From an uncultured Enterobacterales bacterium (GTDB lineage: Bacteria > Myxococcota_A > UBA796 > UBA2385): 64,000 nucleotides of DNA. The notes under the pieces were generated by a model. The model had not been told where the DNA came from. It did no database searches and was given only the letters and a program-made list of their open reading frames with translations. The stretch's first letter is position 1; each line of letters opens with the position of its first letter. The stretch covers positions 32,468 through 96,467 of the forward strand of contig CAZCUX010000029.1 of NCBI GenBank assembly GCA_964502005.1. Direction: 5' to 3'. A program made the translations under genes and the position numbers. Shown here in pieces: positions 1 through 42,577 of this stretch.

Positions 1-604
1 GGCGCCGGCGCTGCGTGGGTTGCATGGGTGGCCGCGGCTGGCGACCTTGGCCGTGCTGCCCTTGGCAATTGGCGTCGGAAAGGGCTTCCAACGGCTTCCC
101 GTGGGAGCGATTGCGCTGGTTGCGGTGTGGGGCATCGGGGTGGCGGGAGGCCCGGCCACCCCCCTTCCGACGGACGATGGTGTGGTCGAGGGGCCGGTGC
201 TCGACCTCGTGTCGCTCGACGCGACCATCCCGGAGCAAGCGGTGCGCCAGCGCGCGTTGGCCGATGCGGTATTGTGGCGGCGCTTGCAGGGCGGGGTGGC
301 GACCTCCCTGGCGCCGTCGACCCCGCGCCTTACGGCTGCGGCATCGTTCAGCCTCGCGACCCGCCGGTTGACCGGCTGGGAGTCTCCCGTGTCCGCCCGG
401 TGTGCGCAGGAGGAGGCTGCGCGCTTGGTCGCCCGTGGCTTTCGGGCGGTGGTGTGGCATGGCGGGCATTCGTCCCATCCACTCGCGGCGGATTTGATGC
501 GCGACTTGGGTCCTCCTGCGATGGTCGCGAGCGGCTGGATGTGGACGCTTGACCCCCAAACGCCGGCTCCTCGGGACTGTCCCCTCCTTTCAGAGGTTCA
601 CTGA
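1..604 (+). CDS. 3' end of a hypothetical protein, 5'-truncated by the window edge
   Basis: The frame of ORF 20-604 has protein-like composition; the two alternative frames are Arg/Gly-rich GC artefacts. Its TGA stop (602-604) lies inside a copy of the TGAATCGCCATTCA palindrome. Confidence 0.4.
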   Translation, partial: APALRGLHGWPRLATLAVLPLAIGVGKGFQRLPVGAIALVAVWGIGVAGGPATPLPTDDGVVEGPVLDLVSLDATIPEQAVRQRALADAVLWRRLQGGVATSLAPSTPRLTAAASFSLATRRLTGWESPVSARCAQEEAARLVARGFRAVVWHGGHSSHPLAADLMRDLGPPAMVASGWMWTLDPQTPAPRDCPLLSEVH

Positions 605-616
605 ATCGCCATTCAT
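601..616. repeat. Palindromic element copy cTGAATCGCCATTCAt
   Basis: Half-sites TGAAT/ATTCA. The TGA at 602-604 is the stop codon of the plus-strand ORF. Confidence 0.9.
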
Positions 617-631
617 TTTGGGTGGACCGAA

Positions 632-647
632 ATGAATCGCGATTCAG
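632..647. repeat. Palindromic element copy aTGAATCGCGATTCAg
   Basis: The stop codon of the minus-strand dynamin gene (644-646) lies inside it. Followed by TTTTT. Confidence 0.9.
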
Positions 648-3139
648 TTTTTCGGAGAAGCGGCGTTATCCCCAGGGAGGGAGGTTTCGCGAACGAGCAG
701 CACGCCGATGGTCTCGACGCGCGTATTGGGTGCTAGGTTCCACGGTTCTTGGTTTCGTTCCGCGACGAGCTGGGTGCCCGCGCGGCCGGGAGAACGGGTC
801 CAAAAGGCGCGGGCGCCGGGGAGGTCGTACGGAATTCCGTCGACTACGACCTGCGCTTCGTCTACATCGGGCAAGCGCCAGCCAGGCAGCGCATCGGCCA
901 AGCGCGTGGCTTCTGCGTAAGTCAAGCAAGGAGCGGCAGCGTTGGCGTCGTTGGGGAGCACGCAGTCTCCGGGACTTGTTCCTGCCGGGAGCCGTGGTCC
1001 GCCCGCAAACGCCGCGCCGAACAGCGCCTCTACCTCGGAGGGGCGCAGTGTATGTCCACAGACCCCCTGTTCGGCGTTGCCATCGCAGGTGAAGCCGAAG
1101 ACCTCGGACGTTGCCAAGGGGTACTTCCAGATAGACACGCTCCGGCCAATGTCGGCCCAGGCCGAAGACAGGGCCTCGCGCGCTTCTTGCCAGACGGGGG
1201 CGTTCCAAGCGCTGCCCACGGAGTCTGCTGCGGTGCGCAGCTCGGTGGCGAGGTCGTGTCGCAGAGCGGGGTCGACCCCTATCGCCGTGAGTTGGGCGTC
1301 GATGTGGTCCAGGGTGGCTTGGGTGGACACCGCCAAGTAGATGCCTCCCGTCGCGGCAACCACCGTCGCCGCCTTTCCTGCGCGCATCGTCGCCTGGGTG
1401 AGGGCCCATCGGTGAAGCGCGCGAAGCGAAAGCTGTGTGGGGGGCTGGAGGAGGACGGCGAGCCGGTGGGCCATTTCGAGGTCAGTGGGGGCGGGCGGCG
1501 TGGTGGTGGCGGACGGTTGATTCAGGACGATGCTGTGGGCGACCTGAAGAAGAGCACGCTGTTTTGCCGGGAGCAGCCACGATTGCGAGAAACGTTGGAC
1601 CCATGTATTGCGTTGTGTATGCAACGCATGTTGGAGCGCGCTTCCTATCCACGGAAGGCCGGTGCAGGGGGCGGGCTGCCAGAGGCTTGGCGCGGTGCAA
1701 CCTTCGCCGAACCGCGTGGGAACGTCGAGGTTCAGTATTGTGTCGCCAGAAAGAAGAAGCGAAATCAGGGTGTCGCGCGCGGTGGGGTCGGCGTGGGTCC
1801 ATCGCGCCGGTCGTGCCGCCAGTCGCGACAATTCGACGAGGCAACGCCGCCAAGTGCCTCCCGCTGGACTTCGGAGCAGAAACTCGTGGGTGTCCAACAG
1901 ATGGACCGCCTGGAGACACACCTGCAATTGGGGGTCGGATTGGCGCTGAAGCCATGCGAGCACGGGAACAAGACTGGCCTCGTCTGGCGGAGGCACGGTA
2001 GACCGCTGCACACGCAGAATGCGCAGCTCTTCGCGCCAGTCCGCGTGGAACTGCTGCAGCACGTTTTCTACGGCGGAGGGGCCTTTGTCACGTTGCTCGT
2101 CCAGCACGCGTTGGGCGACGAGGCGTCGGATGCGGTTGTGCTCGACGGAGCGCTTGGTTTGCACGAGGCGCTTTCGCTGTATGCGTTCGGCTTGGAGATT
2201 TCGCAATACATCGCGGACGGGACCGGTGCCGGGCAAGTGGAGGTCGGTTCCTTGGGTGGAGCAGTAGACGACGCCCGCCAGATTGCCGCGAAAGCGCGCG
2301 CGGAGGTCTTCTTCTAACTCCTTGAGTTGCTCTTCGCGGCTTGGGCCCCTTCGGCGGACACGAACCTTGTCGACCATAGTAAGCACAATCCAGGTGCGGC
2401 CGGTGATGCGCGCAAGTCTCTCCAATAGCTGCGTTTCGTCTTCGGAGCCGGCGCGGGTTGCGTCGCAAATCAACAATGCAGCATCACAGCGCCCCAGCTC
2501 TTCGTCGACGCGCAGCAGGTGGGACGGGTGCTCGCTTCCGACGCCGGGAGTGTCTACCAGCACGAGGTCTGCGAGGAGGGGATGGGACAATCGAAGACGC
2601 ACCCGCGCGGGTGCGTTGGGGCCTTGTGCGCGAAGGGCGGTCGCCAAACGTTCGCTTGGGAGCGGTCCCCAACTTCCGTCCGAGAACTGTTGGTCACAGT
2701 CGTTGGTGGTGCCTTCCTGCAACTCGGTAACGCAGCCGGTGGTGGGTTCGACGTCGGCGGGGAGGCGGGTGCCCAGTCCTACCAGCGCATTGAGCAAAGA
2801 TGACTTTCCGCTCGAAAACCCGCCCACCAAGGCGACGCGAAGTGCGGGTCCGTCATCGGGGGGCGTGCCCAAGGCCCGCGTGAGGACCGACTGTGCGCAA
2901 GGTGTGAGCAGCTCGGGCGACAGCGTTATATTGGACGTTCGGGTGTCCGCGCGCAGCTCGTCGAGCATCGTAGCGACGAGGTCTTCGGATAGGGCGGCGG
3001 ACGAAGTGGGTGGCGCGAGCGCGGGCCCGAGCGTTTCGAAGAGCGTGGCGGTCGAGGTCCATGGGCCGCGGTGCGCGAGTTCTGCGAGCCATGGCAAGGT
3101 GACGCGTTCGGGCACGGCCATGTGACGCGTCCCGTTCAA
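644..3139 (-). CDS. Bacterial dynamin-like GTPase (BDLP family), 831 aa, with a ~250-aa C-terminal extension
   Basis: P-loop ALVGGFSSGKSSLLNAL, G3 motif DTPGVGS, and a long helical stalk. The start ATG overlaps the stop of the upstream dynamin (ATGA at 3136-3139). The stop codon (644-646) is embedded in the TGAATCGCGATTCA palindrome. Confidence 0.85.
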   Translation of the reverse strand: MNGTRHMAVPERVTLPWLAELAHRGPWTSTATLFETLGPALAPPTSSAALSEDLVATMLDELRADTRTSNITLSPELLTPCAQSVLTRALGTPPDDGPALRVALVGGFSSGKSSLLNALVGLGTRLPADVEPTTGCVTELQEGTTNDCDQQFSDGSWGPLPSERLATALRAQGPNAPARVRLRLSHPLLADLVLVDTPGVGSEHPSHLLRVDEELGRCDAALLICDATRAGSEDETQLLERLARITGRTWIVLTMVDKVRVRRRGPSREEQLKELEEDLRARFRGNLAGVVYCSTQGTDLHLPGTGPVRDVLRNLQAERIQRKRLVQTKRSVEHNRIRRLVAQRVLDEQRDKGPSAVENVLQQFHADWREELRILRVQRSTVPPPDEASLVPVLAWLQRQSDPQLQVCLQAVHLLDTHEFLLRSPAGGTWRRCLVELSRLAARPARWTHADPTARDTLISLLLSGDTILNLDVPTRFGEGCTAPSLWQPAPCTGLPWIGSALQHALHTQRNTWVQRFSQSWLLPAKQRALLQVAHSIVLNQPSATTTPPAPTDLEMAHRLAVLLQPPTQLSLRALHRWALTQATMRAGKAATVVAATGGIYLAVSTQATLDHIDAQLTAIGVDPALRHDLATELRTAADSVGSAWNAPVWQEAREALSSAWADIGRSVSIWKYPLATSEVFGFTCDGNAEQGVCGHTLRPSEVEALFGAAFAGGPRLPAGTSPGDCVLPNDANAAAPCLTYAEATRLADALPGWRLPDVDEAQVVVDGIPYDLPGARAFWTRSPGRAGTQLVAERNQEPWNLAPNTRVETIGVLLVRETSLPGDNAASPKN

Positions 3140-4872
3140 GGCAAGGAGTCCAGTTCGGCGACGAGGGCGCGCAATTTTGCGGTGTGTTCGCTGGATGCAG
3201 GAGCGGAAATCGCGTCGATGCGACGGCGAAGCGCTTGTATTTCCGCTGTGACGTGCTGGTTGATGGCTGTCTGAAGCCTTTGCTCATGCTGGTCTATCGC
3301 GTTGCGCATCGACGCTCGAAGACCAGCGATGGCTTGCTGTGTGGTGGCGTCGGCGTCGACCACACTCCGGGTGGTGGTCGAAGACATTGTCGCTGCGCCC
3401 CATGCGATGAAGGGGAGAAGCCCTGGCGCGGTGAAGAGCGCGACGAGACCGGCGCCGACGGCCACTGCGAGCATATCGTTGCTCTCTTTGACCGTGCGCA
3501 TGCAGACATCGACATGTTGTGCTTCGACGCGCTTCGGGCCTTGGAGGGATAGCTTGGCTTCGGAGTCAATCAGCTCGGCCATTGCAAGCTGTAGCGCGCT
3601 TTTTGCGGCGTTTTGGTGGTGCTTGAGGTGGGCTTGGAGTCGGTCGGCAACTTCCTGAAGGACGGCTCTTGCCGCGTCTTTGTCGTCGGAACGGAGCTGA
3701 TTGGCCAAACGAATCCGCGCTTCGTCCAAGTCGACGTCGAGGCGAGACCGAAGCTGCTCTATGTGCGGCTTTTCGGAGGCGTGTACCTTTGTGGGCACAT
3801 TCGCCAGGACCTGTTGGAGCGTTCGTAGACGCTCGATGCGTCGGTTTGCTGCCTCTGCATCGAGGTGGGCGTCTTCGAGGCGCGCGCGGAGGGACAAACG
3901 CAAGCGTCGTTGCAGCGAGGTTTGCCGCTCGTTGTGCGCGTCCATCAACACTTCTACGCGTTGTTGGACGAGGTGTTCGTCCAGGAGCCCACGGAGCGTG
4001 GGGATACCCGAGGATTCGAGCGCCTCTATCTCTCCTGTGCCGACCTCGGGCCTGCCTATGCCCTCTACCTCGGCGATTGCGTCCTGGGCGTCGCGAGCGT
4101 CGGCGGCGGACACAAAAAGGATAGGTGGACAGCCGCCTGTCGCCTCCCGAACGGCGGACGCTATCCGGTCTTGTACGCGGGCCCGCTCGGCGCGGGTCGC
4201 GAGGGCGTCGGTGTGGTTGACGACGAGGAATGCGTTCTTGCGGTCCCCCAGAAGGACGTGCTCGCGCAGCAAACGAAGCTCGGCTTTGCCAAGTGGACGG
4301 TCGGCACGCGTCACGAATACCACAGCGTCGGCGCGGGGAAGCCACGCGAGGGTACAGCGTTCGCCGGCTAGCCCACCGGCTTGGGCGCCGGGTGTATCGA
4401 CCAGTTCTACTTCGGGCCCAGGCCAGCCCGGCGTTGTAATGGTGACCTCGACCTCCTCGGCGTCGGCCGAGCGGTCTTGGGCGAGCGTCGCGAGGTCGCG
4501 CAGCGGGCGTACGGGGCCGAGTGGTCTTCCCGGCAAACGTGCGCGGATGCCCTCGGTGCCCCGAGGGTCGCGGCGCACGCGGCAGACGGTCGCCGTGCAT
4601 TCACGCAGCTTCACGGGCACCACCTCGTCGTTCAGCAGCGCGTTGATGAGGGTGGACTTCCCCGCCTTGAATTCACCAACGAATGCAATTCGAAGGCGCT
4701 CCACCCGCAACTCTTGGTCCATTCGCCGCGCTTCACGCGCCAACTCTGGCTCTTCGGCACGTTCGGCCAGCGATGCGAGCGCCTGCAAGCGACTCCGCAG
4801 CTTTGGAATCTGGGTACGCAGGGCAGCAACGGCTTCGGAGGGGCGCGCGTCGCGTTCGAGAAGTGTGGACAC
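3136..4872 (-). CDS. Bacterial dynamin-like GTPase (BDLP family), 578 aa, first gene of a tandem pair
   Basis: P-loop FVGEFKAGKSTLINALL, G3 motif VDTPGAQ, a coiled-coil N-terminus, and a hydrophobic hairpin (LVALFTAPGLLPFIAWGAA) typical of a BDLP paddle. It is translationally coupled to the downstream paralogue. Confidence 0.85.
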   Translation of the reverse strand: MSTLLERDARPSEAVAALRTQIPKLRSRLQALASLAERAEEPELAREARRMDQELRVERLRIAFVGEFKAGKSTLINALLNDEVVPVKLRECTATVCRVRRDPRGTEGIRARLPGRPLGPVRPLRDLATLAQDRSADAEEVEVTITTPGWPGPEVELVDTPGAQAGGLAGERCTLAWLPRADAVVFVTRADRPLGKAELRLLREHVLLGDRKNAFLVVNHTDALATRAERARVQDRIASAVREATGGCPPILFVSAADARDAQDAIAEVEGIGRPEVGTGEIEALESSGIPTLRGLLDEHLVQQRVEVLMDAHNERQTSLQRRLRLSLRARLEDAHLDAEAANRRIERLRTLQQVLANVPTKVHASEKPHIEQLRSRLDVDLDEARIRLANQLRSDDKDAARAVLQEVADRLQAHLKHHQNAAKSALQLAMAELIDSEAKLSLQGPKRVEAQHVDVCMRTVKESNDMLAVAVGAGLVALFTAPGLLPFIAWGAATMSSTTTRSVVDADATTQQAIAGLRASMRNAIDQHEQRLQTAINQHVTAEIQALRRRIDAISAPASSEHTAKLRALVAELDSLP

Positions 4873-5189
4873 CGGTGCTTTCCTGGGAGTCTACGGATGG
4901 AAATGCGAAGATACACCGATAAGGAGACACAATGCGGAGCCGTTCGTCCGCTCGGGAATACACAACGGAAGGGAATGCGCACGTTACGCGGTTTTACGAA
5001 ATACCATCGTGGTACGCGATGGCTGCATTTCTCTTGCATTCCCACCTTCGGTCGGGAAAAGCAAGGCCATTTCATGGGTGCGCGTGCCGGTACCCCCATG
5101 TTTCCGACCGAAATTCGTGGTCGACGACGCCCAACGCGAAATCGTCCGGTTCGATTGCTTTGTGCCTGGAATCGTGCGTTGTCGCCCAA

Positions 5190-5205
5190 CTGAATCGCCA
5201 TTCAT
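5190..5205. repeat. Palindromic element copy cTGAATCGCCATTCAt
   Basis: In the dynamin-operon upstream / desaturase downstream gap. Followed by TTTTCT. Confidence 0.9.
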
Positions 5206-5234
5206 TTTCTGGAAGGGCCACAGGCGGAGCATCA

Positions 5235-6212
5235 TTACGTGCGAGAGGGCCCCTCTCTATTTTTTTGTGACCGACCCGGAAGACCGGGCTGACCGGCTTG
5301 CTCGGGGTGTCGTTCTACAAATGCGGCCTTCATCTCTTGTGCGGTTTGGCGAGAACCATCGTGGCTCCACCCCGGTGGACCCAACACGTAGCCCAATCGT
5401 TGTTGCAGCGAGAGGCCGGGTTGGCTCGCATCATGGGCCATGGCGAGTAGCTCGTGAAATGCAATGCGCAGCGGATTGAAGGTGTAGACTTGGGTGGTCA
5501 GGCCATAGATGGGAGGGTCTGCTGCATTTTCGGGGACAAATGTGCCGAACATGCGGTCCCAAAGAATAAAAACGCCGGCATAATTGGCGTCGAGATACCT
5601 TGGGTTGGTGGCGTGGTGAACGCGGTGGTGCGACGGTGTGTTGAACACCGCTTCAAACCAGGGCGGCATGCGATCGACCAGCTCGGTGTGAATCCAGAAC
5701 TGGTAAACCAAGTTGACGCCTCCGACGAATGCGAGCATCGCGGGATGAAAGCCCATCGCCAGAAGCGGTAGGTGAAAGAGAAAGCCCAGGGTCAGCTCAC
5801 CGGCCCAGGTTTGTCGCAAGGCAGTCGAGAGATTGTAATGTTGGGACGAATGGTGGGTGACGTGCGCGCCCCAAAACCATCGAATTTCGTGCATATATCG
5901 ATGATACCAATAATAACGGATGTCATCCAACACAAAGCAAAGCACAAACACCCACGGCGACCAACCGTAGGACTGGTCTGCAAACGAGAAGGGTGCCCAT
6001 TTGGTGACGACAGCCAACAACGTGCCCACGACGGCGCCGAGGGTCAGGCCGAGGAACAAGTTTCCGGTGCCCATGGTCAGGCTGGTGATGGTGTCGCGCA
6101 TCTCATAGCGGACCCGGCCCTTGCGCATCCCCCACGCGACCTCTGCGACCATCGCGAGGACAAAGCCGGGCACTGCCAAGTTGACGATGTCGGGGAGTTC
6201 GGGCATTGGCAT
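5235..6212 (-). CDS. Fatty-acid hydroxylase superfamily enzyme, sterol desaturase / C4-methyl sterol oxidase-like
   Basis: Three histidine boxes (HRYMHE, HVTHHS, HHRVHH) in a polytopic membrane protein, with LWDRMFGTF following the last box. Confidence 0.8.
   Translation of the reverse strand: MPMPELPDIVNLAVPGFVLAMVAEVAWGMRKGRVRYEMRDTITSLTMGTGNLFLGLTLGAVVGTLLAVVTKWAPFSFADQSYGWSPWVFVLCFVLDDIRYYWYHRYMHEIRWFWGAHVTHHSSQHYNLSTALRQTWAGELTLGFLFHLPLLAMGFHPAMLAFVGGVNLVYQFWIHTELVDRMPPWFEAVFNTPSHHRVHHATNPRYLDANYAGVFILWDRMFGTFVPENAADPPIYGLTTQVYTFNPLRIAFHELLAMAHDASQPGLSLQQRLGYVLGPPGWSHDGSRQTAQEMKAAFVERHPEQAGQPGLPGRSQKNREGPSRT
5243..5266 (+). terminator. Rho-independent terminator-like hairpin (GAGAGGGCCCCTCTC plus TATTTTTTT), plus-strand sense only
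   Basis: A GC-rich 6-bp stem is followed by a T7 run. It overlaps the last codons of the minus-strand desaturase gene. No plus-strand protein gene lies upstream. Confidence 0.45.
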
Positions 6213-6219
6213 CCGTACC

Positions 6220-6648
6220 TCACTTTGCGCCGGCGACGAGGGTAGACAAGCGGGCCATCCACATCGACCGCAACACGGGGTCCGTCAAAGGAAAGGACAG
6301 CTGGGCGAAGGTGGGGTCTGCGAGCACGACCCACAGCCTTTGGGGCTCCGAATAGACGGACCGTACCGCGCCGGGCTTCCACAAGCGCGTGACGAGGCGG
6401 TCGCCCAACACCGCCACGACCCCCATACCGGCAGGCGTCCACAACAACGCCGCCGAGCCATCCTGTGCCAACAAGGAGTCCGTCACCGTATCTGTCGGAT
6501 GGGACAACGCAAAACGCGCCGCAGCCATTTGGACGTCGGCAATCTTGGCGACACGAGCGCCTCCCAGCCCATACACGAGGCCCAGCACCAACGCCGTGCC
6601 CGCACTGATGACGGCCAGGAGAAGGGGCAGCGGAATGGACGTCGCCAT
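6220..6648 (-). CDS. Hypothetical membrane-anchored protein
   Basis: N-terminal TM helix (LPLLLAVISAGTALVLGLVYGL). It sits between recN and the desaturase on the same strand with small gaps. Confidence 0.45.
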   Translation of the reverse strand: MATSIPLPLLLAVISAGTALVLGLVYGLGGARVAKIADVQMAAARFALSHPTDTVTDSLLAQDGSAALLWTPAGMGVVAVLGDRLVTRLWKPGAVRSVYSEPQRLWVVLADPTFAQLSFPLTDPVLRSMWMARLSTLVAGAK

Positions 6649-6666
6649 TGAACCTCCTACGGTACC

Positions 6667-8445
6667 CTACCCCAAGGATAGAGCGGTTGTGGCGGTTTCC
6701 GCAGAGAGAGTTGGTGCTGTGGGCGAGGCGTCTGCGGGACTCCGTGCGGCGCGTGCGGCAGCCCGCAGCTCACGGGCGGCTGCGCGGGAGGCGGAGCTCA
6801 CATCGATTCCGCCCAGCATCCGGCTGATTTCGTCGAGGTGGCCCGCCTCGTCCAGCTTTTTTACCCGGCTGTGCGTGCGACCGTCGACTTGCACCTTGTG
6901 GACATGGTGGTGGTGCCGCGCGTACACCGCAACCTGGGGGCTGTGGGTGATACAGAGGACTTGGTTGTGGCGTGCAATATCGGACAGTTTTTGTCCGATT
7001 ACCTCAGCGACCGCGCCACCCACGCCGGTGTCCACTTCGTCGAACACGAACGTACCTACCGGCCCGATATCGGCCAGCACGCGCTTGAGTGCCAGCAATG
7101 CCCGCGACAACTCGCCGCCGCTCGCAACGCGGGCGAGAGGGCGAGGCTCTTCTCCGGGGTTGGGGGCAATCAAAAACTCCACCCGGTCGATGCCCCGCGC
7201 GGAGAAACGCTGGCCATCGAGGGCGATGCCCCCGTCGCCGTCAAGCGGTGCGACATCGACCATGACCCGTGCCCCGCCCATACCAAGGCTCGAAAGCTCT
7301 GCCGTCATGGCCGATGCCAAGGTGCCCGACGCCGCGTGGCGGCCCCGCGACAAGGCGCGGGCGACAGAGCGGGCCGCATCGCGCGCCGCTTCGACCGCCT
7401 TGGACAGTGTATCGACTCTGGCTTCGCTATCACCCAGCTGCGCAAGCTCCTTTCGCGCGGCATCGGCCCACTCCAATAGGTCGTCGAGGGTGTGGCCATG
7501 CTTTCGCACCAACCGGCGCAGCGCGACCATTCGCTCCTCCGCTTCTGCAAGCGCGCCGGGGTCCATCGAGACATCGGAGGCGTAGGCTTCTAAGTCGCGG
7601 GCGACCTCTTCAATCTCCATGCGCGCGGAGTCGAGGCGGGAAGCAAACACGCCAAACTGGGCATCGTGCCGGAGCGCGGCTTCTAAGCGGCCGGCAATTT
7701 TGGCCAGGCGTGCGGTAACGGCGTCATCGGCGCCATAGAGTGCGTGTTCGGCTTCCCCGGCTGCACGGGCGAGGTCGACGGCGTGGCGCAGGCGCCGTGT
7801 GGTGGCTTCTAGTTCATCAAGCTCGCCTGGCTGGGGCTTGAGCTTGTCCACTTCTTGAAGCTGAAATCGGAGGAGGTCTTCTCGCTCGGCACGTTCGCGA
7901 AGGGTAGCCGAAACCTCGCGGAGTGCTTGTTCTGTGTCCACCAAACGTTTGTGGGCTTCAGCCACCGCAGAACGATTGCCCATGAGCGCGCCGAACGCGT
8001 CGAGATGGTCGATGTGGGTGCGCGCATCGACGAGGGTGTGGTGCTCGTGTTGGCTAGAGATGTCAACCAGACCCCGTGCAAGCTCCTGCAGGGTGCGGGC
8101 GGGTGTGAGGCGGCCGCCAACAAACGCGCGGCTACGACCCGACCGGAGAACCACGCGTCGCACAATCAGCTCATCGTCAACCTCAATCCCCCTTTCCGCC
8201 AGCGCCGCACGCAGCTTTGGTGCGGGTCCCAGTTCGAACAGCGCTTCGACCTCCGCTTGGTCGGCGCCGGTTCTCACCAACCCCGCATCGGCGCGCCCAC
8301 CCAAAACCAGGGCCAGCGCGGCGATAAGGATGCTTTTGCCTGCCCCTGTTTCGCCGGTCAGAACATTGAGACCGGGACCGAGCTCAAGCTCGGATTCCTC
8401 AATGATGGCCAGATTTCGGATTCGCAACAGTTGGAGAGACATCGG
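6667..8445 (-). CDS. recN: DNA repair protein RecN (SMC-like ATPase)
   Basis: N-terminus MSLQLLRIRNLAIIEESELELGPGLNVLTGETGAGKSILIAAL is the Walker A region of RecN, followed by a coiled-coil middle and a C-terminal signature/Walker B region. The start is placed at the internal MSLQ (ORF aa 58); the longer upstream extension looks non-native. Confidence 0.9.
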   Translation of the reverse strand, partial: PMSLQLLRIRNLAIIEESELELGPGLNVLTGETGAGKSILIAALALVLGGRADAGLVRTGADQAEVEALFELGPAPKLRAALAERGIEVDDELIVRRVVLRSGRSRAFVGGRLTPARTLQELARGLVDISSQHEHHTLVDARTHIDHLDAFGALMGNRSAVAEAHKRLVDTEQALREVSATLRERAEREDLLRFQLQEVDKLKPQPGELDELEATTRRLRHAVDLARAAGEAEHALYGADDAVTARLAKIAGRLEAALRHDAQFGVFASRLDSARMEIEEVARDLEAYASDVSMDPGALAEAEERMVALRRLVRKHGHTLDDLLEWADAARKELAQLGDSEARVDTLSKAVEAARDAARSVARALSRGRHAASGTLASAMTAELSSLGMGGARVMVDVAPLDGDGGIALDGQRFSARGIDRVEFLIAPNPGEEPRPLARVASGGELSRALLALKRVLADIGPVGTFVFDEVDTGVGGAVAEVIGQKLSDIARHNQVLCITHSPQVAVYARHHHHVHKVQVDGRTHSRVKKLDEAGHLDEISRMLGGIDVSSASRAAARELRAAARAARSPADASPTAPTLSAETATTALSLG

Positions 8446-8519
8446 GACTCCGCAAGAGACGACGTTACCTGTTCTCGCGTCTCTTGCCTGCACACTATCC
8501 CTGGATCTTTCTCCATGTC

Positions 8520-8536
8520 CGGTCAGTTTTTGACCG
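8520..8536. promoter_or_regulatory. Inverted repeat CGGTCA-GTTTT-TGACCG about 75 bp upstream of the recN start, candidate operator
   Basis: Perfect 6-bp arms inside an otherwise GC-rich leader of an SOS-type gene. Confidence 0.3.
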
Positions 8537-8581
8537 ATGTTGATTTTTCTCCCGTCTCTCGTCTCCAAAAGACCGTAAAAA

Positions 8582-9100
8582 TCAGTGGTTTGTGCCTTCC
8601 CGATACCAAACGTCAAAGAACGTCAGTTCTACGGCTGGCTCCGCACAGAAATACATCGTTGCAATTCCGTATGACCCCAACTCGCCGCCTTCGGTCTGCT
8701 CTACCCAAATTTGCTCTGGTTCGGGGAAAAAGAACGCGCCGCCGTCGTCCACCCAGTTTTCAAGATTGGGCGAGGTGCCCACGATGAATTCCCAGCCATT
8801 GACGGGACCCCCTTCGTTTTTCAGGCGAAGCTCCATACACGCGCCGCCGTCCCACACACTGGTTTGGGCCCAGTAGAGTTTGAAGCCGTTGGCGACGAGG
8901 ATGCCGCGACCGGAGCCGACGGGAGTGCTACCACCACCTTCCGAAGAGCCGTCTCCCGATTCCGTTTGCTCCGCGCCCAATCCCGAGCCGAGGCCCGACG
9001 CAGATCCCTCCACGCCGGTGTCGGTCTCCGAATTGGCCATGTAGCAACCCGTTGCCAAAAAAAGCGGCATCAGCCATTGAATTTGGGTTCCAAGGGACAT
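8582..9100 (-). CDS. Lipoprotein with a CBM2-like (carbohydrate-binding) domain
   Basis: Lipobox LFLATGC. A Gly/Ser/Glu-rich linker precedes a beta-sandwich-like C-terminus with conserved Trp and NGW motifs (LYWAQTSVWDGGACMELRL..VNGWEF). Start placed at the internal MSLG. Confidence 0.5.
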   Translation of the reverse strand: MSLGTQIQWLMPLFLATGCYMANSETDTGVEGSASGLGSGLGAEQTESGDGSSEGGGSTPVGSGRGILVANGFKLYWAQTSVWDGGACMELRLKNEGGPVNGWEFIVGTSPNLENWVDDGGAFFFPEPEQIWVEQTEGGELGSYGIATMYFCAEPAVELTFFDVWYREGTNH

Positions 9101-9403
9101 TGCGTGTTCTCCGGGGCGGAAATGCGGGGTGGTGCGAGGGGGCATTCGTTTTGACGATAGACCAGAGATGGACGGAATTCCACTCGGTTGATGCGTTTGC
9201 AGAACCGCGCGGACCTACAACCATCTTTCACGGTCATCGGAAAATCGCTCACGGGAGATGATAGCCGGATGGCACTCGATTGGACAGCCCCCCAACTTGG
9301 GCGTGTCGACATGAATGTCTGCTTTGTCGGGTTTCGTGTCGTCTACTGCCCTTTCACGGAAGCGTCACCCGTCGACGTACCTCCCCGGAGATAGCCGGCC
9401 GCC

Positions 9404-10111
9404 ATGGAAGACCTCATTCTCATCGTCGATGACGAGCCAGATCTGGTCGCTGCCCTCACGTTCGCACTGCGGCGTGAGGGATTCCGCACTCGTTCCGCGA
9501 GCGATGGTGCGTCGGCGCTGCGTGGTGCCAACGGCGACCCTTTGCCCGACTTGGTCCTTCTTGACCTCATGTTGCCGGATATGCAGGGCACCGAAGTGTG
9601 CCGCCGCCTCAAGAGCGATCCCGTGACGGCCGACATTCCCGTCATCATGCTCACCGCGCGTGCCGAGGAGATCGACCGCGTGGTTGGCTTTGAGGTGGGT
9701 GCCGACGATTATGTGCCCAAGCCGTTTTCGACTCGCGAGCTCGTGCTGCGTGTGCGTGCGGTGTTGCGGCGGGCGCGCGGTCGTGAAGACACGCGGGAAA
9801 TGGTCACTTTTGGCGTGCTGAAGGTCGACGAAGCCGGTCATCAGGTGTGGGTTGACGGCGAAGAAGCGGTGATTACCGCGCTCGAATTCCGGCTCCTGAG
9901 CTTGTTCCTCAATCGTCGCGGCCGCGCCCTCACGCGCGAGGCTCTGCTCGACGAAGTGTGGGGCCAAAGCACCGCCGTCACCGTGCGAACGGTCGACACC
10001 CACGTCAAGCGTCTCCGCCAAAAACTGCGCGCGGCGGGGGATTACATTCAGACCATTCGCGGTGTGGGCTACAAATTTGCCGCTACCCCCGACGGGCCGT
10101 CCCCCGGATGA
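9404..10111 (+). CDS. phoB: OmpR/PhoB-family response regulator (PhoB-like)
   Basis: The receiver domain (DDEPD...D...K) and winged helix align closely with E. coli PhoB, e.g. MLTARAEEIDRVVGFEVGADDYVPKPFSTRELVLRVRAVLRR and IQTIRGVGYKF. Its stop overlaps the downstream kinase start (ATGA at 10108-10111). Confidence 0.85.
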   Translation: MEDLILIVDDEPDLVAALTFALRREGFRTRSASDGASALRGANGDPLPDLVLLDLMLPDMQGTEVCRRLKSDPVTADIPVIMLTARAEEIDRVVGFEVGADDYVPKPFSTRELVLRVRAVLRRARGREDTREMVTFGVLKVDEAGHQVWVDGEEAVITALEFRLLSLFLNRRGRALTREALLDEVWGQSTAVTVRTVDTHVKRLRQKLRAAGDYIQTIRGVGYKFAATPDGPSPG

Positions 10112-12003
10112 ACACCGAACCGCCGTTTGGGATGTTTTGGCCCACACGGGGCGGGTTTCGAACCCGGCTCCTGAGCATCTCGTTTTTTTTGCTGGTGCTC
10201 TTTTCCTTGTGCAGCGTGGGCTGGATTGAAGTCTCGCTCCGGCCTGCGATGGAGCGACGCGCCGTCGACGACCTCCTGCACAACGCCGCGACCACCCGCA
10301 TGGTGCTCGCCGAGGTCGCCGACCGTGAGCTGCATCGCTCTACCGCGCTCGATGAGACCATCTCCGCGCTGTCGACCCACGCCGGAATCCGTCTCACGCT
10401 CATCAATGCAAACGGTGAAGTGGTCGCCGATTCCGAACCCATCGATCCCATTGCCCAACAAAATCTCCAAGTGCGAGACCGGCCAGAAATTCAGGCGGTC
10501 TTGAACCCATCGGTGGCCGAGTACGGCGCCGCACGCCGCACGCCGCCCCAAGTCGACCGCGAGATGTTGTTTGTGGCCGTGCGCTTTCCCGACGCATCCC
10601 AGGGGCCGGGCGTCTTGCGGGTCGCAATGCCCGCCGAGCGCGCCGACTCGCCAGTTTGGTCCATTTATAAGCTGTTGGCCGTCGCACTCGCCGCGGGTCT
10701 CGCTGTCATGTTGATGATGACAGGTCTCGCGTCTTCGATGATGAGCCGCGATGTCGAGGCGCTCCTGCAACACACCGCGGCGCTCGCCAACGGCGAACCC
10801 CTCGCGCCGCTCCATATGCGGTCCAGCGTAGAGCTTGCGGGCATCGCCGGCACCATCGACCAAATCTCGCAAGAGACCCAACGCGCAATCCGTGCGTTGG
10901 CGGACGAGCGGCGGCGCTCTGCGGCCGTCTTGAAGACCATGCGCGAAGGATTGCTTTCCGTCGATGGCGAAGGGAAGCTCACGCTCGTCAATCCGGCGGG
11001 AACTTCGCTCATCGGGCTCACCGCAGACCACCTCGGGCAATCTATCGACGAAGCCTGCGGTCACCCCGTCATCGTCGACCTGATTCGCTCCGCGCGGCGC
11101 GATGGGCACGCCATCGGCGAGTTGTCGCTGTCCGATGGCACCGAGGTCGACGGCGAAGGGCCGCGCGTCATCCAAGCGTGGGCGCGGGTGGGCGAAGAGG
11201 GCGATTGTGTCGTGTCACTGCACGAAATTACGCATATTCGCCGTCTGGAGACCATCCGGCGCGATTTCGTGGCCAACGTCTCCCACGAACTACGAACGCC
11301 CGTCAGCATCGTGCAAGCGAGCGCCGAAGCCTTGCAAGATGGCGCCATCGACGACCCCCGCTACGCCGCACAATTCATCGACGCAATCTTGCGAAACACC
11401 GAACGGCTGCGTCTTTTGACCGAGGATATCCTCCAGCTTTCCCGCATTGAAGCCGGACACATTGGGGTCGACCTCGAAGCGGTCTACATCGACGGCGTCG
11501 TTGCGGATGTGGCCGACATTTTGAGCCCACGCGCCACCACCCGCCGCCAAACCATCACCACCGATGTCCCCGACGACATCGAGGTCCTGGCCGACGCAGG
11601 CGGGCTAGAACAAGTCCTCGTCAACCTCCTCGAAAACGCCATGAAGTACACACCCGAAGGTGGGCACATCGCGATTACCGTAGAACGGCGTGAGGGCGCA
11701 CGAATTCGACTGCGGGTCACCGACAATGGGCCGGGCATTCCCGCCGCGCATCGGTCCCGCTTGTTTGAGCGTTTCTACCGGGTCGACCCTGGCCGTTCGC
11801 GGGCCATTGGCGGCACGGGCCTGGGCCTCGCTATCGTCAAGCATTTGGCAGAAGCGATGGGCGGAAGTGTGGGAATGGAGCCGAATCGGCCGTCTGGGTC
11901 GGTGTTTTGGATTGAGTTGGCCGAGGCGCCGCCGGCCGAGCCGGTCGCAGAAGACCTCGAAGTCACGGCCACCGGCGAACCCAGTCCGGTTGTGGCAGGA
12001 TAG
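10108..12003 (+). CDS. phoR: Sensor histidine kinase, PhoR-like (TM, HAMP, PAS, HisKA, HATPase)
   Basis: H-box HELRTPVSIVQASAEAL, plus N, G1 (DNGPGIP) and G2 (GGTGLGLAIV) boxes, with two TM segments near the N-terminus. Coupled to the PhoB-like gene. Confidence 0.85.
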   Translation: MNTEPPFGMFWPTRGGFRTRLLSISFFLLVLFSLCSVGWIEVSLRPAMERRAVDDLLHNAATTRMVLAEVADRELHRSTALDETISALSTHAGIRLTLINANGEVVADSEPIDPIAQQNLQVRDRPEIQAVLNPSVAEYGAARRTPPQVDREMLFVAVRFPDASQGPGVLRVAMPAERADSPVWSIYKLLAVALAAGLAVMLMMTGLASSMMSRDVEALLQHTAALANGEPLAPLHMRSSVELAGIAGTIDQISQETQRAIRALADERRRSAAVLKTMREGLLSVDGEGKLTLVNPAGTSLIGLTADHLGQSIDEACGHPVIVDLIRSARRDGHAIGELSLSDGTEVDGEGPRVIQAWARVGEEGDCVVSLHEITHIRRLETIRRDFVANVSHELRTPVSIVQASAEALQDGAIDDPRYAAQFIDAILRNTERLRLLTEDILQLSRIEAGHIGVDLEAVYIDGVVADVADILSPRATTRRQTITTDVPDDIEVLADAGGLEQVLVNLLENAMKYTPEGGHIAITVERREGARIRLRVTDNGPGIPAAHRSRLFERFYRVDPGRSRAIGGTGLGLAIVKHLAEAMGGSVGMEPNRPSGSVFWIELAEAPPAEPVAEDLEVTATGEPSPVVAG

Positions 12004-12036
12004 ATTACCCGCCTATTTTTTCCCTGGAAATCCACC

Positions 12037-12978
12037 ATGCGCTTGTTGTTGCTGTCTTGTCTTTCGTTGTGGGTGGGATGTGCCGGTGCGTCCAAAAACG
12101 ACGGTACAGGCGCCACAAGCAGCTCCACCGCTGGCGAGGGAGAAGGGGAAGGCAGCGTTGACGCCGATGGCGACGGTGTTTCCGCAGGCGACGACTGCGA
12201 CGATAACGATAGCAACGTGTTCCCCGGTGCGCCGGAGCTGTGTGATGGCATCGACAATGATTGTGATGGCGCGCCCCACAGCGAAGAAGCCGATGACGAC
12301 GGCGATGGCGTCGCAGATTGTATGGCCTGTGCCGATGCCGGCTATTGGAATGCGCTGCGAGACGGCCTGACCGGCGAGGAGCTTCGGGCAGAGCTGTCCC
12401 AAAACCCTGACCCCACCTGCGATTACAGCCAGTCGAAGCGTGCGATTTACCAGAGCTTTGATTTGGAGTCCGGCAACGTTGTGACCTGCGTGTATACCGG
12501 CGACCAGGTGGCCATCGTCGGCGGCGGTCCCGAAGACGACGCCATGAACATCGAGCACACTTGGCCGCGCAGCGAAGGCGCCGAATCGGAGCCCGCATTG
12601 TGCGATGTGCACCACCTTTACCCCACCATGGTCGATGCAAACTCCGAGCGCGGCAGCAACCCCCTCGGCGAAGTGACAGGCACGGTCTATTGGAGTCGCG
12701 GAGGCTCTTCGCTTGGCCGTGACAGCGGCGGCACGACGGTCTTCGAGCCTCGCGACGCCCACAAGGGAAATGCTGCGCGCTCTATGTTGTATGTGTGGAC
12801 CCAATACGGCTACGCACCCTCGGCTGCGGAAAAAGACATGTACGCGGCCTGGAATGCCCTCGACCCCGTCGCTACGCGCGACGTCGAGCGCGATGCGGCC
12901 ACCAGCCGTTACCAATTCAACCACAATCCCTTTGTGGTGTGTCCCGCCTTCGCAGAACGTTTGTTGAATGCCCGCTGA
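12037..12978 (+). CDS. Secreted lipoprotein, extracellular endonuclease I (EndA/Vvn) family
   Basis: Lipobox LWVGCAG and an Asp/Cys-rich MopE-like linker (DADGDGVSAGDDCDDND...CDGIDNDCDG). Endonuclease-I motifs NIEHTWPRS and CDVHHLYP...N.ERGSNP. The stop TGA (12976-12978) lies inside the CTGAATCGCGATTCAG palindrome. Confidence 0.7.
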   Translation: MRLLLLSCLSLWVGCAGASKNDGTGATSSSTAGEGEGEGSVDADGDGVSAGDDCDDNDSNVFPGAPELCDGIDNDCDGAPHSEEADDDGDGVADCMACADAGYWNALRDGLTGEELRAELSQNPDPTCDYSQSKRAIYQSFDLESGNVVTCVYTGDQVAIVGGGPEDDAMNIEHTWPRSEGAESEPALCDVHHLYPTMVDANSERGSNPLGEVTGTVYWSRGGSSLGRDSGGTTVFEPRDAHKGNAARSMLYVWTQYGYAPSAAEKDMYAAWNALDPVATRDVERDAATSRYQFNHNPFVVCPAFAERLLNAR

Positions 12979-14269
12979 ATCGCGATTCAGTGGTTGGAAG
13001 CGCAGGAAATACCTGGGTTTTCTTGCTGGCTTGGATAACGCTGGACATTGTGTACTTTTTGTGGTATTGTTCGGATGTTCCTCGTCGACGGGCAAGCTGC
13101 CGGTGGCATCGTTGTTTGCGTCGTCCAGCGAGGCTGGTTCGACCTACGAAACGGTCACCGAAGAGAGCCCCTCGCCAACCGAAGACAGCGCCGCCATCGA
13201 CGGCTTGCCCGAAGACCCGCCATGGCCCACCGACGGCGATGGTGTGGATGCAGGCGGCGACATGGACTGCCCCGACCTTCTGACGCCGTGCAATCACGCC
13301 GTTCGACTGGCTGTGCGCGACGAAGCGGGTGCATTCTGGCCGATGGACGGCCCTCTCGCAATCCGTGCGAGTGTCCCCGATGTGATGATTGTAGACCACG
13401 GCGTTCTCGACGGTCGCCATTGGCGCTCGCTGTGGCTGACTTGGGTGGATGTCGACCCTTCCCATATTCCGGCGGAAGCCAACGCCGAAAACATCCTTAC
13501 TACGGCTGTGTTGGCCTTTCCCGATGATTTGGTGACCAACGCCGCGGCCTTTTTGGACCTATTGCACGGTGCCGGGCCCTACGATTGGGTGCGTCAACGA
13601 ACCGACACCTGGAAACAAGGGTACCGCATCGTCGACCCTGACCGGGAGGTCTTCTCCGACGGCGACACCGTCCAGCACGCGCTTCTCGTTATCGACCTTG
13701 ACTTGGAGAGCGCGCCGGAGTCCGTGCAAAACCACTTTTATGTGCTCACCTCCAACGATGGCTTTTCGTTTGAACGGGGCGCAGAGCTCGTCTCTGACCG
13801 CATTGGCACCGACCCCGATTGCTACCCGCTCGGGTCCGCCGACTTCCCTGCGCCCGACCAGTACCCGTCCGTGTTGCCCTTCTCACAATCGTTGGCCGGC
13901 GATGGCCGCTGGGCCTGCAATGTCGCGGGCTACCAACAATTCACGCGCTACGAAGGCACGTTGGCCCGGCAAGCGGAGACCGGCGAAGGCGCGCGGGGCA
14001 TCACCGTCACATCGACCACGATTGTCGATGGCGTGCGGCATGTATGGGGCCACGTCGACGCCGACCCCCCAACTACCGCGGGCCAGGTGGACTTTGTACA
14101 CACCATCGCCTACGACGATGGCTCCTACGCGCCTGTCGACCTTGTGGTCGATGCCGACGACCTTCCAGGCGGCGAGCATGGCATCCATGCGCCAACGCTG
14201 CTGCGGATTGGTTCCGGCATCGAATTGCTCGTCTACCACACACTGTTGGAGCCGCCGGGTGTCCACTGA
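12968..14269 (+). CDS. Hypothetical lipoprotein
   Basis: The n-region KRRK plus LFVVLFGC lipobox is followed by an acidic Pro-rich linker. It overlaps the nuclease gene by 11 nt, and its TGA stop (14267-14269) is again inside the palindrome. Confidence 0.5.
   Translation: MPAESRFSGWKRRKYLGFLAGLDNAGHCVLFVVLFGCSSSTGKLPVASLFASSSEAGSTYETVTEESPSPTEDSAAIDGLPEDPPWPTDGDGVDAGGDMDCPDLLTPCNHAVRLAVRDEAGAFWPMDGPLAIRASVPDVMIVDHGVLDGRHWRSLWLTWVDVDPSHIPAEANAENILTTAVLAFPDDLVTNAAAFLDLLHGAGPYDWVRQRTDTWKQGYRIVDPDREVFSDGDTVQHALLVIDLDLESAPESVQNHFYVLTSNDGFSFERGAELVSDRIGTDPDCYPLGSADFPAPDQYPSVLPFSQSLAGDGRWACNVAGYQQFTRYEGTLARQAETGEGARGITVTSTTIVDGVRHVWGHVDADPPTTAGQVDFVHTIAYDDGSYAPVDLVVDADDLPGGEHGIHAPTLLRIGSGIELLVYHTLLEPPGVH
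12975..12990. repeat. Palindromic element copy CTGAATCGCGATTCAG (perfect 16-mer)
   Basis: Contains the nuclease stop TGA (12976-12978) and codons 3-8 of the next gene. Confidence 0.9.
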
Positions 14270-14281
14270 ATCGCCATTCAG
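14266..14281. repeat. Palindromic element copy CTGAATCGCCATTCAG
   Basis: Contains the lipoprotein stop TGA (14267-14269). Confidence 0.9.
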
Positions 14282-14291
14282 TCGGGCAACC

Positions 14292-14744
14292 GTGCTTCCG
14301 TTGGTCGCGGTGGGCTTAGGTTGGGCTGCGTTGTGTTGGCAACTCTCCAACGCCGGCCACCAGCCGCGTGGCCCGACGCCCTTGCCCGATTGGTATCGGG
14401 TGCAGGCGTTGTTGGTGCCGGTTTTGGTGCCGGCCTTGGGCATCTTCGCCGGGTGGTTGGCGCGGCGCGTGACGGGCGGGACGGAGCGCCTCGCTGCGGA
14501 GGTCGCGCGTTCTATCGCGTGGCCGCTTGGCGCCTTTGTTTTCGTCGATGCGCTCACCTATACACTGGGAGGGTTCGCGGCGTTGGCGCCCGTGTTTTTG
14601 GTGGCCGGACCCTTGGCCGTCTTGGCGGCGATGGGCAGCGCCGGTCGTGCGGTGGCCGCACATTCTGCCCATACCCGTCCTTACGTCGTCGGCGCGGTTT
14701 CTGTGGTGTTGGCGCTCGGCTTGGGGGCACCGCTTTTGCGCTGA
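14292..14744 (+). CDS. Small polytopic membrane protein (about 4 TM helices)
   Basis: Only the 3' part of long ORF 13569-14744 is hydrophobic and protein-like. A GTG start at 14292 is assumed; the upstream part of that ORF is a frame artefact. Confidence 0.3.
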   Translation: MLPLVAVGLGWAALCWQLSNAGHQPRGPTPLPDWYRVQALLVPVLVPALGIFAGWLARRVTGGTERLAAEVARSIAWPLGAFVFVDALTYTLGGFAALAPVFLVAGPLAVLAAMGSAGRAVAAHSAHTRPYVVGAVSVVLALGLGAPLLR

Positions 14745-14762
14745 ACGGGGTATGTCGCCCGT

Positions 14763-17203: not shown

Positions 17204-17215
17204 ATGGCGATTCAG
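17200..17215. repeat. Palindromic element copy aTGAATGGCGATTCAg
   Basis: Contains the GT-C membrane protein stop TGA (17201-17203). Confidence 0.9.
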
Positions 17216-17294
17216 TCGGACGGCTCGAAGCCGTTGCCCCCAAGGTGCCGCGGTTTTACGCCGTGTCCGCCAGATGCAGCCACGGCGCAGACGC

Positions 17295-19193: not shown

Positions 19194-19266
19194 CAGTTCG
19201 ACTCCATTTGCGCGCTCCTATTGCGTTTTTCGCCGTTCCGCCGCTACCGGTGGCTGCGGATTTCCG

Positions 19267-27222: not shown

Positions 27223-27642
27223 ATGAAGACAGTTGTGAGCCGATGTCGCTGCCACTCCCGAAAAAAAGCCCACCGTTGTTGTGGGCCATACCATGCAGGC
27301 CGTATGGCGGAATCGCCCGAAATATTGATGCGTTCGAGATTTTCGGCGTATGCACTCGGCCTTGTCGATTATATTCAGCGGACCACAGACCCCCAAGGGG
27401 ATGCGTGGGAGGCGGATACCGCAGCTTGGGCCGCGTCGATTCGACGATTTTCGGAGGGAACCCGTTTTGCCGGACTGGTCATCGATTCGGCACCGGCGCC
27501 TGTTGGCGACCACGGCGAGGTCGTGTTCACGGCGGTGCTCGTCCAAGGTGGAAAGGACGCCACGTTTGTGGAACGGAGTCGCTTTCGGAGGGACAACGTG
27601 GCCGGTTGGTTGTATGTCGATGGTGACCGCCTCAACGGATGA
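27223..27642 (+). CDS. ychJ: YchJ-family protein (UPF0225) with N-terminal SEC-C-type zinc motif
   Basis: CRCHSRKKAHRCCGPY (C-x-C-x8-CC) followed by PEILMRSRFSAYA, matching E. coli YchJ CPCGS..CC..PEHLMRSRY. Confidence 0.7.
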   Translation: MKTVVSRCRCHSRKKAHRCCGPYHAGRMAESPEILMRSRFSAYALGLVDYIQRTTDPQGDAWEADTAAWAASIRRFSEGTRFAGLVIDSAPAPVGDHGEVVFTAVLVQGGKDATFVERSRFRRDNVAGWLYVDGDRLNG

Positions 27643-27685
27643 ATGGGCGGGTGTTCGTGTGCGGGGTCGCCCATTTGCCCCGTAG

Positions 27686-36048: not shown

Positions 36049-36064
36049 ATGAATGGTGATTCAT
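36049..36064. repeat. Palindromic element copy aTGAATGGTGATTCAt
   Basis: About 50 nt downstream of recX. Confidence 0.8.
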
Positions 36065-42561: not shown

Positions 42562-42577
42562 CTGAATGACGGTTCAG
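42562..42577. repeat. Degenerate palindromic element copy cTGAATGACGGTTCAg
   Basis: 27 nt downstream of the sulP stop. Followed by TTTGG. Confidence 0.7.

Follow-up and report, generated by a model that had tools for sequence, protein, structure and literature searches.

Why should the same short, AT-rich palindrome recur along a GC-rich stretch of bacterial DNA, and why should the stop codons of genes lie inside it? The question is raised by 64,000 nucleotides of contig CAZCUX010000029.1 (the whole stretch analysed, hereafter the window), from an uncultured bacterium that GTDB places in Myxococcota_A, in which copies of TGAAT-N4-ATTCA are dispersed and found mostly at the ends of genes. By sequence the element belongs to a known class, the operator of the TetR-type, acyl-CoA-sensing repressor FadR (YsiA), and it is deployed here in a way that has not been described for that class. 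The pattern suggests that the 3'-end copies may be protein-bound barriers at gene ends.

A palindrome at gene ends and its match to the FadR operator

Exact matches to the core start at ten positions of the window (602, 633, 5191, 12976, 14267, 17201, 36050, 39733, 63757 and 63986), against none in 100 dinucleotide-preserving shuffles, in agreement with an earlier note on this DNA that put the chance expectation at effectively zero. Allowing up to three mismatches to CTGAATSGSSATTCAG, 13 sites are recovered where about 1.2 would be expected; those beyond the exact ten are two degenerate copies at 42562 and 58924, in both of which GTTCA replaces ATTCA, and a partial (half) copy at 63557. The dispersed copies are real and non-random. 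The same note had counted at least 12 copies of a perfect 16-bp palindrome; ten are exact in the core, the copies at 42562 and 58924 are degenerate, and only those at 12975, 63756 and 63985 are perfect palindromes, the remainder differing in the middle tetranucleotide (CGCC, CGCG, GGCG, GGTG) or at the outermost bases (C/A, G/T). Given that the window has a G+C content of 61-65%, the AT-rich core stands out. All ten exact copies fit [A/C]TGAAT-N4-ATTCA[G/T], so that variation sits in the spacer and outer positions only and the half-sites are invariant. When the 50-nt flanks of the copies are aligned, nothing is conserved except the two bases next to the 16-mer, A on the left and T on the right, with the three copies of a terminal tandem array as the exception; because the flanks are unrelated outside the palindrome, the unit is one of 16-18 bp and not a longer mobile element. 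In a strain 99.7% identical to the window, the sole change in any copy is a single-nucleotide polymorphism in the spacer (TGAATTGCGATTCA at L107 133-146, equivalent to window 12976-12989), and the half-sites are intact. No further copies were found in 5 kb of left flank beyond the window, Rfam returned nothing relevant for the whole window at gathering thresholds, and the exact 14-mer was not found in published papers.

The second regularity concerns placement. Genes were delimited by two sets of calls, one from codon statistics and one made independently on Logan contigs identical or 99.7% identical to the window, and both agree on the embedded stops: the TGA of the element is the stop codon of the five genes that the earlier note had named, ending at 604 (plus strand), 644 (minus strand), 12978, 14269 and 17203. 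At 596-653 two convergent genes each end in their own copy, also as described there. The tie to gene 3' ends and convergent junctions that it proposed holds in numbers as well, with eight of the nine copies outside the array lying within 70 nt after a stop codon (such zones make up about 5% of the window), the non-embedded 3'-end copies at 5190, 36049 and 42562 being 26-50 nt past stops. Intergenic regions between convergent genes carry a copy in three of seven cases, divergent ones in none of seven. Two copies, 12975 and 14266, are not strictly extragenic. The former also provides codons 3-8 (A-E-S-R-F-S) of an overlapping lipoprotein gene if this starts at ATG 12968, which is most plausibly the case; a KRRK n-region and an LFGC lipobox come after that ATG. 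Throughout the window the copies occupy 3' ends, gaps between convergent genes and operon junctions, their neighbours are not fatty-acid degradation genes and share no coherent function, and no sigma-70-like or TTGACA-type promoter lies at operator distance from any of them.

The recognised form of the element, a 16-18 bp inverted repeat (A)[C/A]TGAAT-N4-ATTCA[G/T](T), is that of a characterised operator. The Bacillus FadR box is WTGAATGAMTANTCATTCAN, and in the crystal structure of B. halodurans FadR on DNA each monomer reads ATGA(A/G)T, the dimer binding a 16-bp inverted repeat with a 4-bp spacer (PMC5397183). The window copies have this geometry, with inverted 6-bp half-sites of the ATGAAT type 4 bp apart. 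A scan for the exact 16-mer, with one genome per species, gave at least 102 loci; Myxococcota account for about 40% of those listed, far above the share expected for chance matches. At about 30 of the 41 Myxococcota sites the palindrome directly follows a TTGACA-N17-TAnnnn promoter or lies on the GTG start of a TetR gene, and the downstream genes encode, according to Pfam, acyl-CoA dehydrogenases, thiolase, SCP2, ETF and an Fe-S/CCG protein. The adjacent TetR protein carries the Pfam YsiA-like C-terminal domain, matches B. subtilis FadR (PDB 3WHB/1VI0) with E = 1.7e-33 and has an identical recognition helix, AGVADGTIYLYFKNK. A metagenome scan with ACTGAATCGCCATTCATTT, the 19-mer common to three window copies, yielded 49 loci with a G+C content from 0.33 to 0.71, mostly fadR or acyl-CoA dehydrogenase promoters with one site per locus and in many cases a fadR orthologue alongside; these were FadR operators of other phyla, and the scan gave no additional 3'-end copies. 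Use of the sequence as an operator at fadR and beta-oxidation genes is thus found both in Myxococcota and at the metagenome loci. Four viral contigs also match, without any association. On this comparison of sequences, the element is very probably a FadR box.

The operator of another regulator, LexA (the SOS box) or ArgR (the ARG box), could look much the same. The half-sites resemble the M. xanthus LexA box (CTG AAC / GTT CAG), and the ARG box has a core, TGAAT-N4-ATTCA, that resembles the element. Nonetheless, there are five mismatches to the M. xanthus consensus CTRHAMRYBYGTTCAGS, the ARG box requires an A/T spacer where the element has SGCS, and in about 30 loci it is fadR and beta-oxidation genes that are conserved beside it, rather than genes of the SOS response or arginine metabolism. 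Both boxes were rejected on sequence and on the fatty-acid regulon of relatives, their probability being practically negligible; the earlier note had likewise set LexA aside.

Individual copies and their surroundings

Coordinates of the copies and of the tandem array are given in Table 1, together with four convergent gene pairs from a metagenome-assembled genome (MAG) that are discussed below.

Table 1. Copies of the palindrome in the window, the tandem array, and element-bearing convergent gene pairs of MAG ME-04may21-LR-79.
Feature	Position	Context
Copy CTGAATCGCCATTCAT	601-616	TGA 602-604 is the stop of a plus-strand gene of 543 aa
Copy ATGAATCGCGATTCAG	632-647	Minus-strand TGA 646-644 is the stop of dynamin-like gene 644-3139(-)
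Inverted doublet of copies 601 and 632	590-660 (+)	Centres 31 bp apart
Copy CTGAATCGCCATTCAT	5190-5205	29 nt past the stop of fatty-acid hydroxylase gene 5235-6206(-); 318 nt upstream of the dynamin-like operon
Perfect copy CTGAATCGCGATTCAG	12975-12990	TGA is the stop of an Endonuclease_1/MopE gene
Copy CTGAATCGCCATTCAG	14266-14281	Lipoprotein gene ends at its TGA; overlap with the probable GTG start (14259) of the following membrane-protein gene
Copy ATGAATGGCGATTCAG	17200-17215	TGA is the stop of 401-aa membrane-protein gene 15998-17203; convergent gap with gene 17295-19193(-)
Copy ATGAATGGTGATTCAT	36049-36064	50 nt past the stop of gene 35408-35998(+), 46 nt ahead of the next gene
Intragenic copy CTGAATGGCGATTCAG	39732-39747	In frame L-N-R-H-S within Major-Vault-Protein-like gene 38302-40863(-)
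Degenerate copy CTGAATGACGGTTCAG	42562-42577	AAAA/TTT flanks; convergent gap between SulP gene (stop 42535) and ExbD gene (stop 42612)
Weak match ATGAATCTCGGTTCAG (3 mismatches)	58924-58939	Inside an M1 peptidase gene
Tandem array, units of 199 and 229 bp	63557-64000	Runs off the window
Convergent pair, MAG ME-04may21-LR-79		Radical SAM / GT-C-like gene (L006)
Convergent pair, MAG ME-04may21-LR-79		Acyltransferase / phosphoketolase
Convergent pair, MAG ME-04may21-LR-79		Methyltransferase / GATase-like gene
Convergent pair, MAG ME-04may21-LR-79		parB / folD

The weak match at 58924 is probably a chance occurrence or a decayed copy; the best named matches of the M1 peptidase around it are gammaproteobacterial at about 41% identity, which is uninformative. 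The only clearly intragenic copy, at 39732-39747, lies in a gene whose 853-aa product is a bacterial homologue of the Major Vault Protein of eukaryotes (Pfam MVP_shoulder 1e-26, Vault_3 6.5e-8). An adjacent pair of bacterial dynamin-like genes occupies 644-4872(-), and the larger of the two proteins has one relative only (51% identity) among 5.8 billion proteins; the lineage of this organism must therefore be very poorly sampled. The window itself points to Myxococcota through its gene content only (MopE motifs, FHA, Ser/Thr kinases).

As the earlier note had observed, the element also stands at the unit junctions of the tandem array, at 63756-63771 and 63985-64000, and the leftmost array copy, at 63557-63572, retains only ATCGCGATTCAG. 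The array had no Rfam match at E up to 1, and no array copies were found elsewhere. On the minus strand each unit carries a GG-N10-GC sigma-54-like motif (TGGCTTCTTGGTTGC) together with a GC-rich hairpin that precedes a T5 run, so that tandem small-RNA genes are one possibility for the units. The array is also where short-read assemblies break (L169).

Origin and possible function of the 3'-end copies

How did stop codons come to lie inside an operator? The earlier note had considered that the element targets or creates stop codons and that its insertion might have remodelled C-termini, and a comparison of orthologues speaks to the contrary. In the Polyangiales MAG ME-04may21-LR-79, both convergent genes of locus L006 stop at the two TGAs of a single palindrome, and the gene end reads ...CCC GCA GGC TGA ATC GCG ATT CAG TGA... 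Orthologues at 95% and 90% protein identity have the same LPAG end as L006, and in L163 (90% protein and 85% nucleotide identity), where the gene overlaps a UbiA gene, the end reads ...CCC GCC GGC TGA TGC AGC, with no palindrome. Because L163 has the same GGC TGA without the palindrome, the stop codon and the preceding C are ancestral and the palindrome was built on them; judged from these sequences, the stop predates the palindrome at L006. The endonuclease ending at 12978 has a native C-terminus as well, since its Endonuclease_1 domain is matched over profile positions 42-233 of 235 and only an 11-aa tail separates it from the stop; the dynamin-like protein continues for 12 aa beyond its final conserved block, its relative for 16 aa. 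At L006 itself, a 2.1-kb reverse-oriented gene (5270-7390, with a weak PMT_2/GT-C match) lies between the radical-SAM and UbiA genes, which overlap (TGATG) in the relatives L163 (5066-5070) and L167; the newly formed 3'-3' junction runs through the palindrome, and at its other junction the inserted gene has no copy.

A simple seeding simulation is consistent with such an order of events. With the base composition of the window, we asked which register is the closest pre-site to the core within a zone of 40-60 nt; the register of the stop TGA was strictly closest in 14-19% of the trials and tied in a further 23-26%, where the average register reached about 2%. Seeding on TGA explains a large part of the embedding. 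Elsewhere in the window, 2 of 23 other TGA stops are followed by AT, where chance predicts about one. These two lie at 27640-27653 (TGAATGGGCG) and 35424-35436 (TGAATGAAAC) and lack a second half-site.

In the case of RNA structure, single copies have little to offer. Their AU-rich stems of 5-9 bp reach -1.3 to -10.4 kcal/mol; most do not outperform shuffled controls and most lack a U tract, so that as candidate intrinsic (Rho-independent) terminators they fail; the earlier note had rightly thought the stem too weak for a classical terminator. The T runs that it reported follow the copies at 601, 632, 5190, 42562 and 58924 and no others. Only the doublet qualifies: 590-660 folds into one long hairpin (-32 kcal/mol, z -5.5) followed by U5 on the plus strand, and in this folding model 596-653 is the one place with copies that looks like an intrinsic (two-way) terminator. 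A scan of positions 1-20000 for classical terminators and promoters gave counts equal to those of shuffles. Moreover, positions 1 and 16 of the element vary independently, 7 of 12 pairs being complementary, which is the expectation without pairing. Given the invariant half-sites with a variable spacer, the missing covariation, the weak single stems and an identity with the operator that includes the flanks, the copies are most likely protein-binding sites rather than hairpins.

The accumulation at gene ends is restricted in its distribution. In other Myxococcota loci there is one copy per 8 kb and degenerate copies are not in excess, and the closest relatives of the window have none (see below); since ordinary genomes have one box per locus, the density of about 1 per 6 kb and the 3'-end placement are specific to the lineage. 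These relatives, at 50-55% protein identity, have intergenic DNA that cannot be aligned to the window. Among them, L106, L108 and L111 have a G+C content of 68-71%, compared with 61-65% in the window, and no palindrome; L108 encodes flagellin, which would be unusual if the lineage belongs to Myxococcota. Nonetheless, 3'-end use with embedded stops is not unique to the window and probably arose independently in at least one Polyangiales MAG: the four exact sites found in ME-04may21-LR-79 are each flanked by unrelated housekeeping genes in convergent orientation, and four of the eight stops concerned are embedded in or abut the palindrome. Embedded stops also occur in loci L031, L050, L052 (a GHMP kinase gene) and L032 (a Mur-ligase family gene). 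The last of these, in Myxococcales MAG_44, is a second example of a doublet, with two perfect copies 23 bp apart between co-directional genes (3861-3899) and the Mur-ligase-family stop inside the second copy.

How could such sites be of use at the end of a gene? The explanation that we favour, if tentatively and as somewhat short of probable, is that FadR-type sites on TGA stops act as two-way roadblocks to transcription. In most Myxococcota and several other phyla, a single box right after the promoters of fadR and beta-oxidation genes would be an ordinary operator, and in this organism extra boxes would have accumulated where genes end, in the gaps of convergent pairs and at junctions within operons. 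These extra boxes most likely arose in place, an origin backed by the one orthologue comparison above. In a GC-rich genome, a TGA stop would give three of the five rare bases of the TGAAT half-site, and for this reason boxes selected near a gene end would tend to fall onto the stop codon; with two convergent stops 8 nt apart, a complete box would become possible. A bound FadR-type dimer would be a symmetric, ligand-releasable obstacle to RNA polymerase, which could end or insulate transcription in both directions where an intrinsic terminator is missing. With the box over a stop codon, polymerase would halt before the stop is transcribed, as with LacI-O3 in E. coli. Proteins that obstruct RNA polymerase in this manner are well documented. 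In the E. coli case, LacI at O3 truncates the lacI mRNA and leads to SsrA tagging (PMC3711431), and DNA-bound proteins are known to block polymerase ahead of a stop codon, with rescue by trans-translation (PMC13584721). Of the separate parts of this explanation, binding of the copies by a FadR-type protein in vivo has, from the sequence, about an even chance, and the step from bound copies to working roadblocks is one that we regard as possible but doubtful. A bolder version, in which FadR has been recruited as a genome-wide gene-end factor, with acyl-CoA-releasable boxes giving rise, where they cover a stop codon, to non-stop mRNA and protein tagged by transfer-messenger RNA (tmRNA) so that lipid status controls, through the 3' end, the output of many unrelated genes, would be a long shot.

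Several observations weigh against the roadblock explanation. With roughly one site in every 6 kb, an ordinary transcription factor would be titrated away, and the copy at 39732, with its perfect half-sites, is in the interior of a long gene, a position at which tight blocking of polymerase would do harm. None of the window copies is placed at a fatty-acid degradation promoter, and a fadR gene is absent from the window and 5 kb of extra flank. The closest relatives (50-55% protein identity, G+C 0.68-0.71) lack copies in about 62 kb, even at one mismatch; any function must therefore be dispensable or lineage-specific. The doublet at 596-653 makes a good RNA hairpin with a U tract, which leaves room for a role at the RNA level. 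Of the eight to nine copies near 3' ends, five have a stop embedded, roughly double the fraction expected from simple seeding, so that a functional preference for the overlap is possible. Additionally, the box of L006 stands exactly at the edge of the 2.1-kb inserted gene and boxes of the window stand at tandem-unit junctions, which a role in recombination would fit equally well.

Other explanations account for parts of this evidence. The earlier note had compared the element with repetitive extragenic palindromic (REP) sequences and bacterial interspersed mosaic elements (BIMEs), and one could imagine a REP-like element spread or kept by a trans-acting enzyme, whether similar to a REP-associated tyrosine transposase (RAYT) or other, and serving as a stabiliser of mRNA 3' ends, a processing site or a weak terminator, its identity with the FadR box being operator ancestry or incidental. 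We consider this unlikely. The location at 3' ends and between convergent genes, with none in divergent regions, and an inverted doublet similar to a REPIN (a REP doublet forming a hairpin), at -32 kcal/mol and followed by U5, are the parts of that comparison that stand; the 19 identical nucleotides of three copies could mean shared descent, the high copy number is lineage-specific, and the change in both degenerate copies would give a G-U wobble on the sense strand. However, a unit of only 16-18 bp without the conserved GTAG/GTGG head does not fit, single hairpins of -1 to -10 kcal/mol are no better than shuffles, the outer pair varies without covariation, no transposase (RAYT/Y1) gene is found among the window genes, there is only one doublet in about ten copies, several copies lie within overlapping coding sequence, and a 16-18 nt match to the operator including its flanks is very unlikely by chance. 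Alternatively, the copies could be a by-product: spurious or decoy FadR boxes drifting in at cheap, AT-rich TGA stops, tolerated or buffering the concentration of FadR. Indeed, the simulation favours the stop register 10-20-fold, relatives manage without copies, the neighbouring genes are functionally incoherent and one copy is intragenic. Yet ten exact 10-base cores in 64 kb, with none expected, go beyond drift alone; the half-sites are kept perfectly among the copies and in the 99.7%-identical strain, four of four sites in ME-04may21-LR-79 are specifically in convergent gaps, and TGA stops followed by AT are so few that there is no large pool of half-formed sites. We therefore regard this possibility, too, as improbable.

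Recombination offers a further alternative, in which the palindrome would be a crossover or cleavage point for a recombinase or nuclease, or mere microhomology. At L006, homology to the orthologous locus stops exactly after CTGA and the 2.1-kb reverse gene begins with ATCGCGATTCAG; the array units are joined at the palindrome, the leftmost copy keeping only the same sequence; and the three consecutive gene ends with copies at 12-17 kb recall a cassette array. A distinctly improbable reading all the same, as the window encodes neither an integrase nor a recombinase, the L006 insertion lacks a copy at its other edge, housekeeping convergent pairs (parB/folD) carry the element, the break at L006 falls after the stop, where any gene-level homology must end, and the arms outside the 8-bp centre measure only 4 bp. 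The suggestion in the earlier note of an insertion module similar to a miniature inverted-repeat transposable element (MITE), bringing its own TGA and remodelling C-termini, is very improbable, indeed all but excluded. Each strand of the element does offer a TGA in a single frame, and the stops of five genes lie there. Against this, flanks are unrelated beyond about 18 bp and there is no internal sequence and no target-site duplication; insertion predicts read-through cases at twice the number of in-frame stops, and none is seen; the palindrome-free orthologue L163 stops at the same codon; the endonuclease domain is complete; and that both convergent L006 genes stop in one copy is something insertion would hardly yield.

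Significance and comparison with known systems

If the 3'-end copies are bound, they would be a natural case of a transcription factor operator reused many times as a terminator or insulator, extending the single known 3'-end roadblock of the LacI-O3 type to a genome-wide scale. Seeding on TGA would then be a simple explanation for regulatory sites fused with stop codons in GC-rich genomes. The finding touches on a practical question, namely how transcription of convergent genes is terminated in Myxococcota, which have few classical terminators. Even if the copies are only decoys, motif-based prediction of the FadR regulon would be swamped by non-promoter sites in these lineages.

Among the known systems closest to the element is the FadR box of B. 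subtilis and B. halodurans. Both have inverted 6-bp half-sites of the ATGAAT type with a 4-bp spacer, suited to one dimer, and the identical sequence is found at fadR and beta-oxidation promoters in other Myxococcota and phyla, beside a FadR orthologue with the same helix. The differences are in deployment: the window copies are neither at promoters nor beside fatty-acid degradation genes, they number about ten in 64 kb compared with a handful per genome, and they coincide with stop codons or occupy convergent gaps and operon junctions. REP/BIME elements (and REPINs) of Enterobacteria and Pseudomonas share with them a short dispersed palindrome, the position at 3' ends, the convergent preference and, in one doublet, the long hairpin, and REP elements are likewise bound by proteins (gyrase, IHF). 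By definition, however, a REP is an imperfect palindrome of about 20-40 nt, and the window element is half the length, without a GTAG head or a RAYT gene among those of the window, mostly single, weak as a hairpin and often within overlapping coding sequence; we found no literature on myxobacterial REP elements. The DNA uptake sequences of Neisseria are also short, protein-recognised, conserved within a family and present as inverted pairs downstream of genes, where they serve as terminators. Unlike these, the element has a fad regulon and a neighbouring fadR in relatives, no known link to competence and a density far below the figure for uptake sequences of about 1 per kb on both strands, coding DNA included (one copy per 8 kb in other Myxococcota and none in the closest relatives), and this candidate was rejected. 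The functional parallel is the LacI roadblock at O3, at the 3' end of E. coli lacI, where an operator likewise sits on the end of a coding region and the repressor halts polymerase before the stop, resulting in truncated mRNA and tmRNA tagging. That case is a single autoregulatory locus, whereas the window would present a comparable arrangement, as read from its sequence, at the ends of many unrelated genes.

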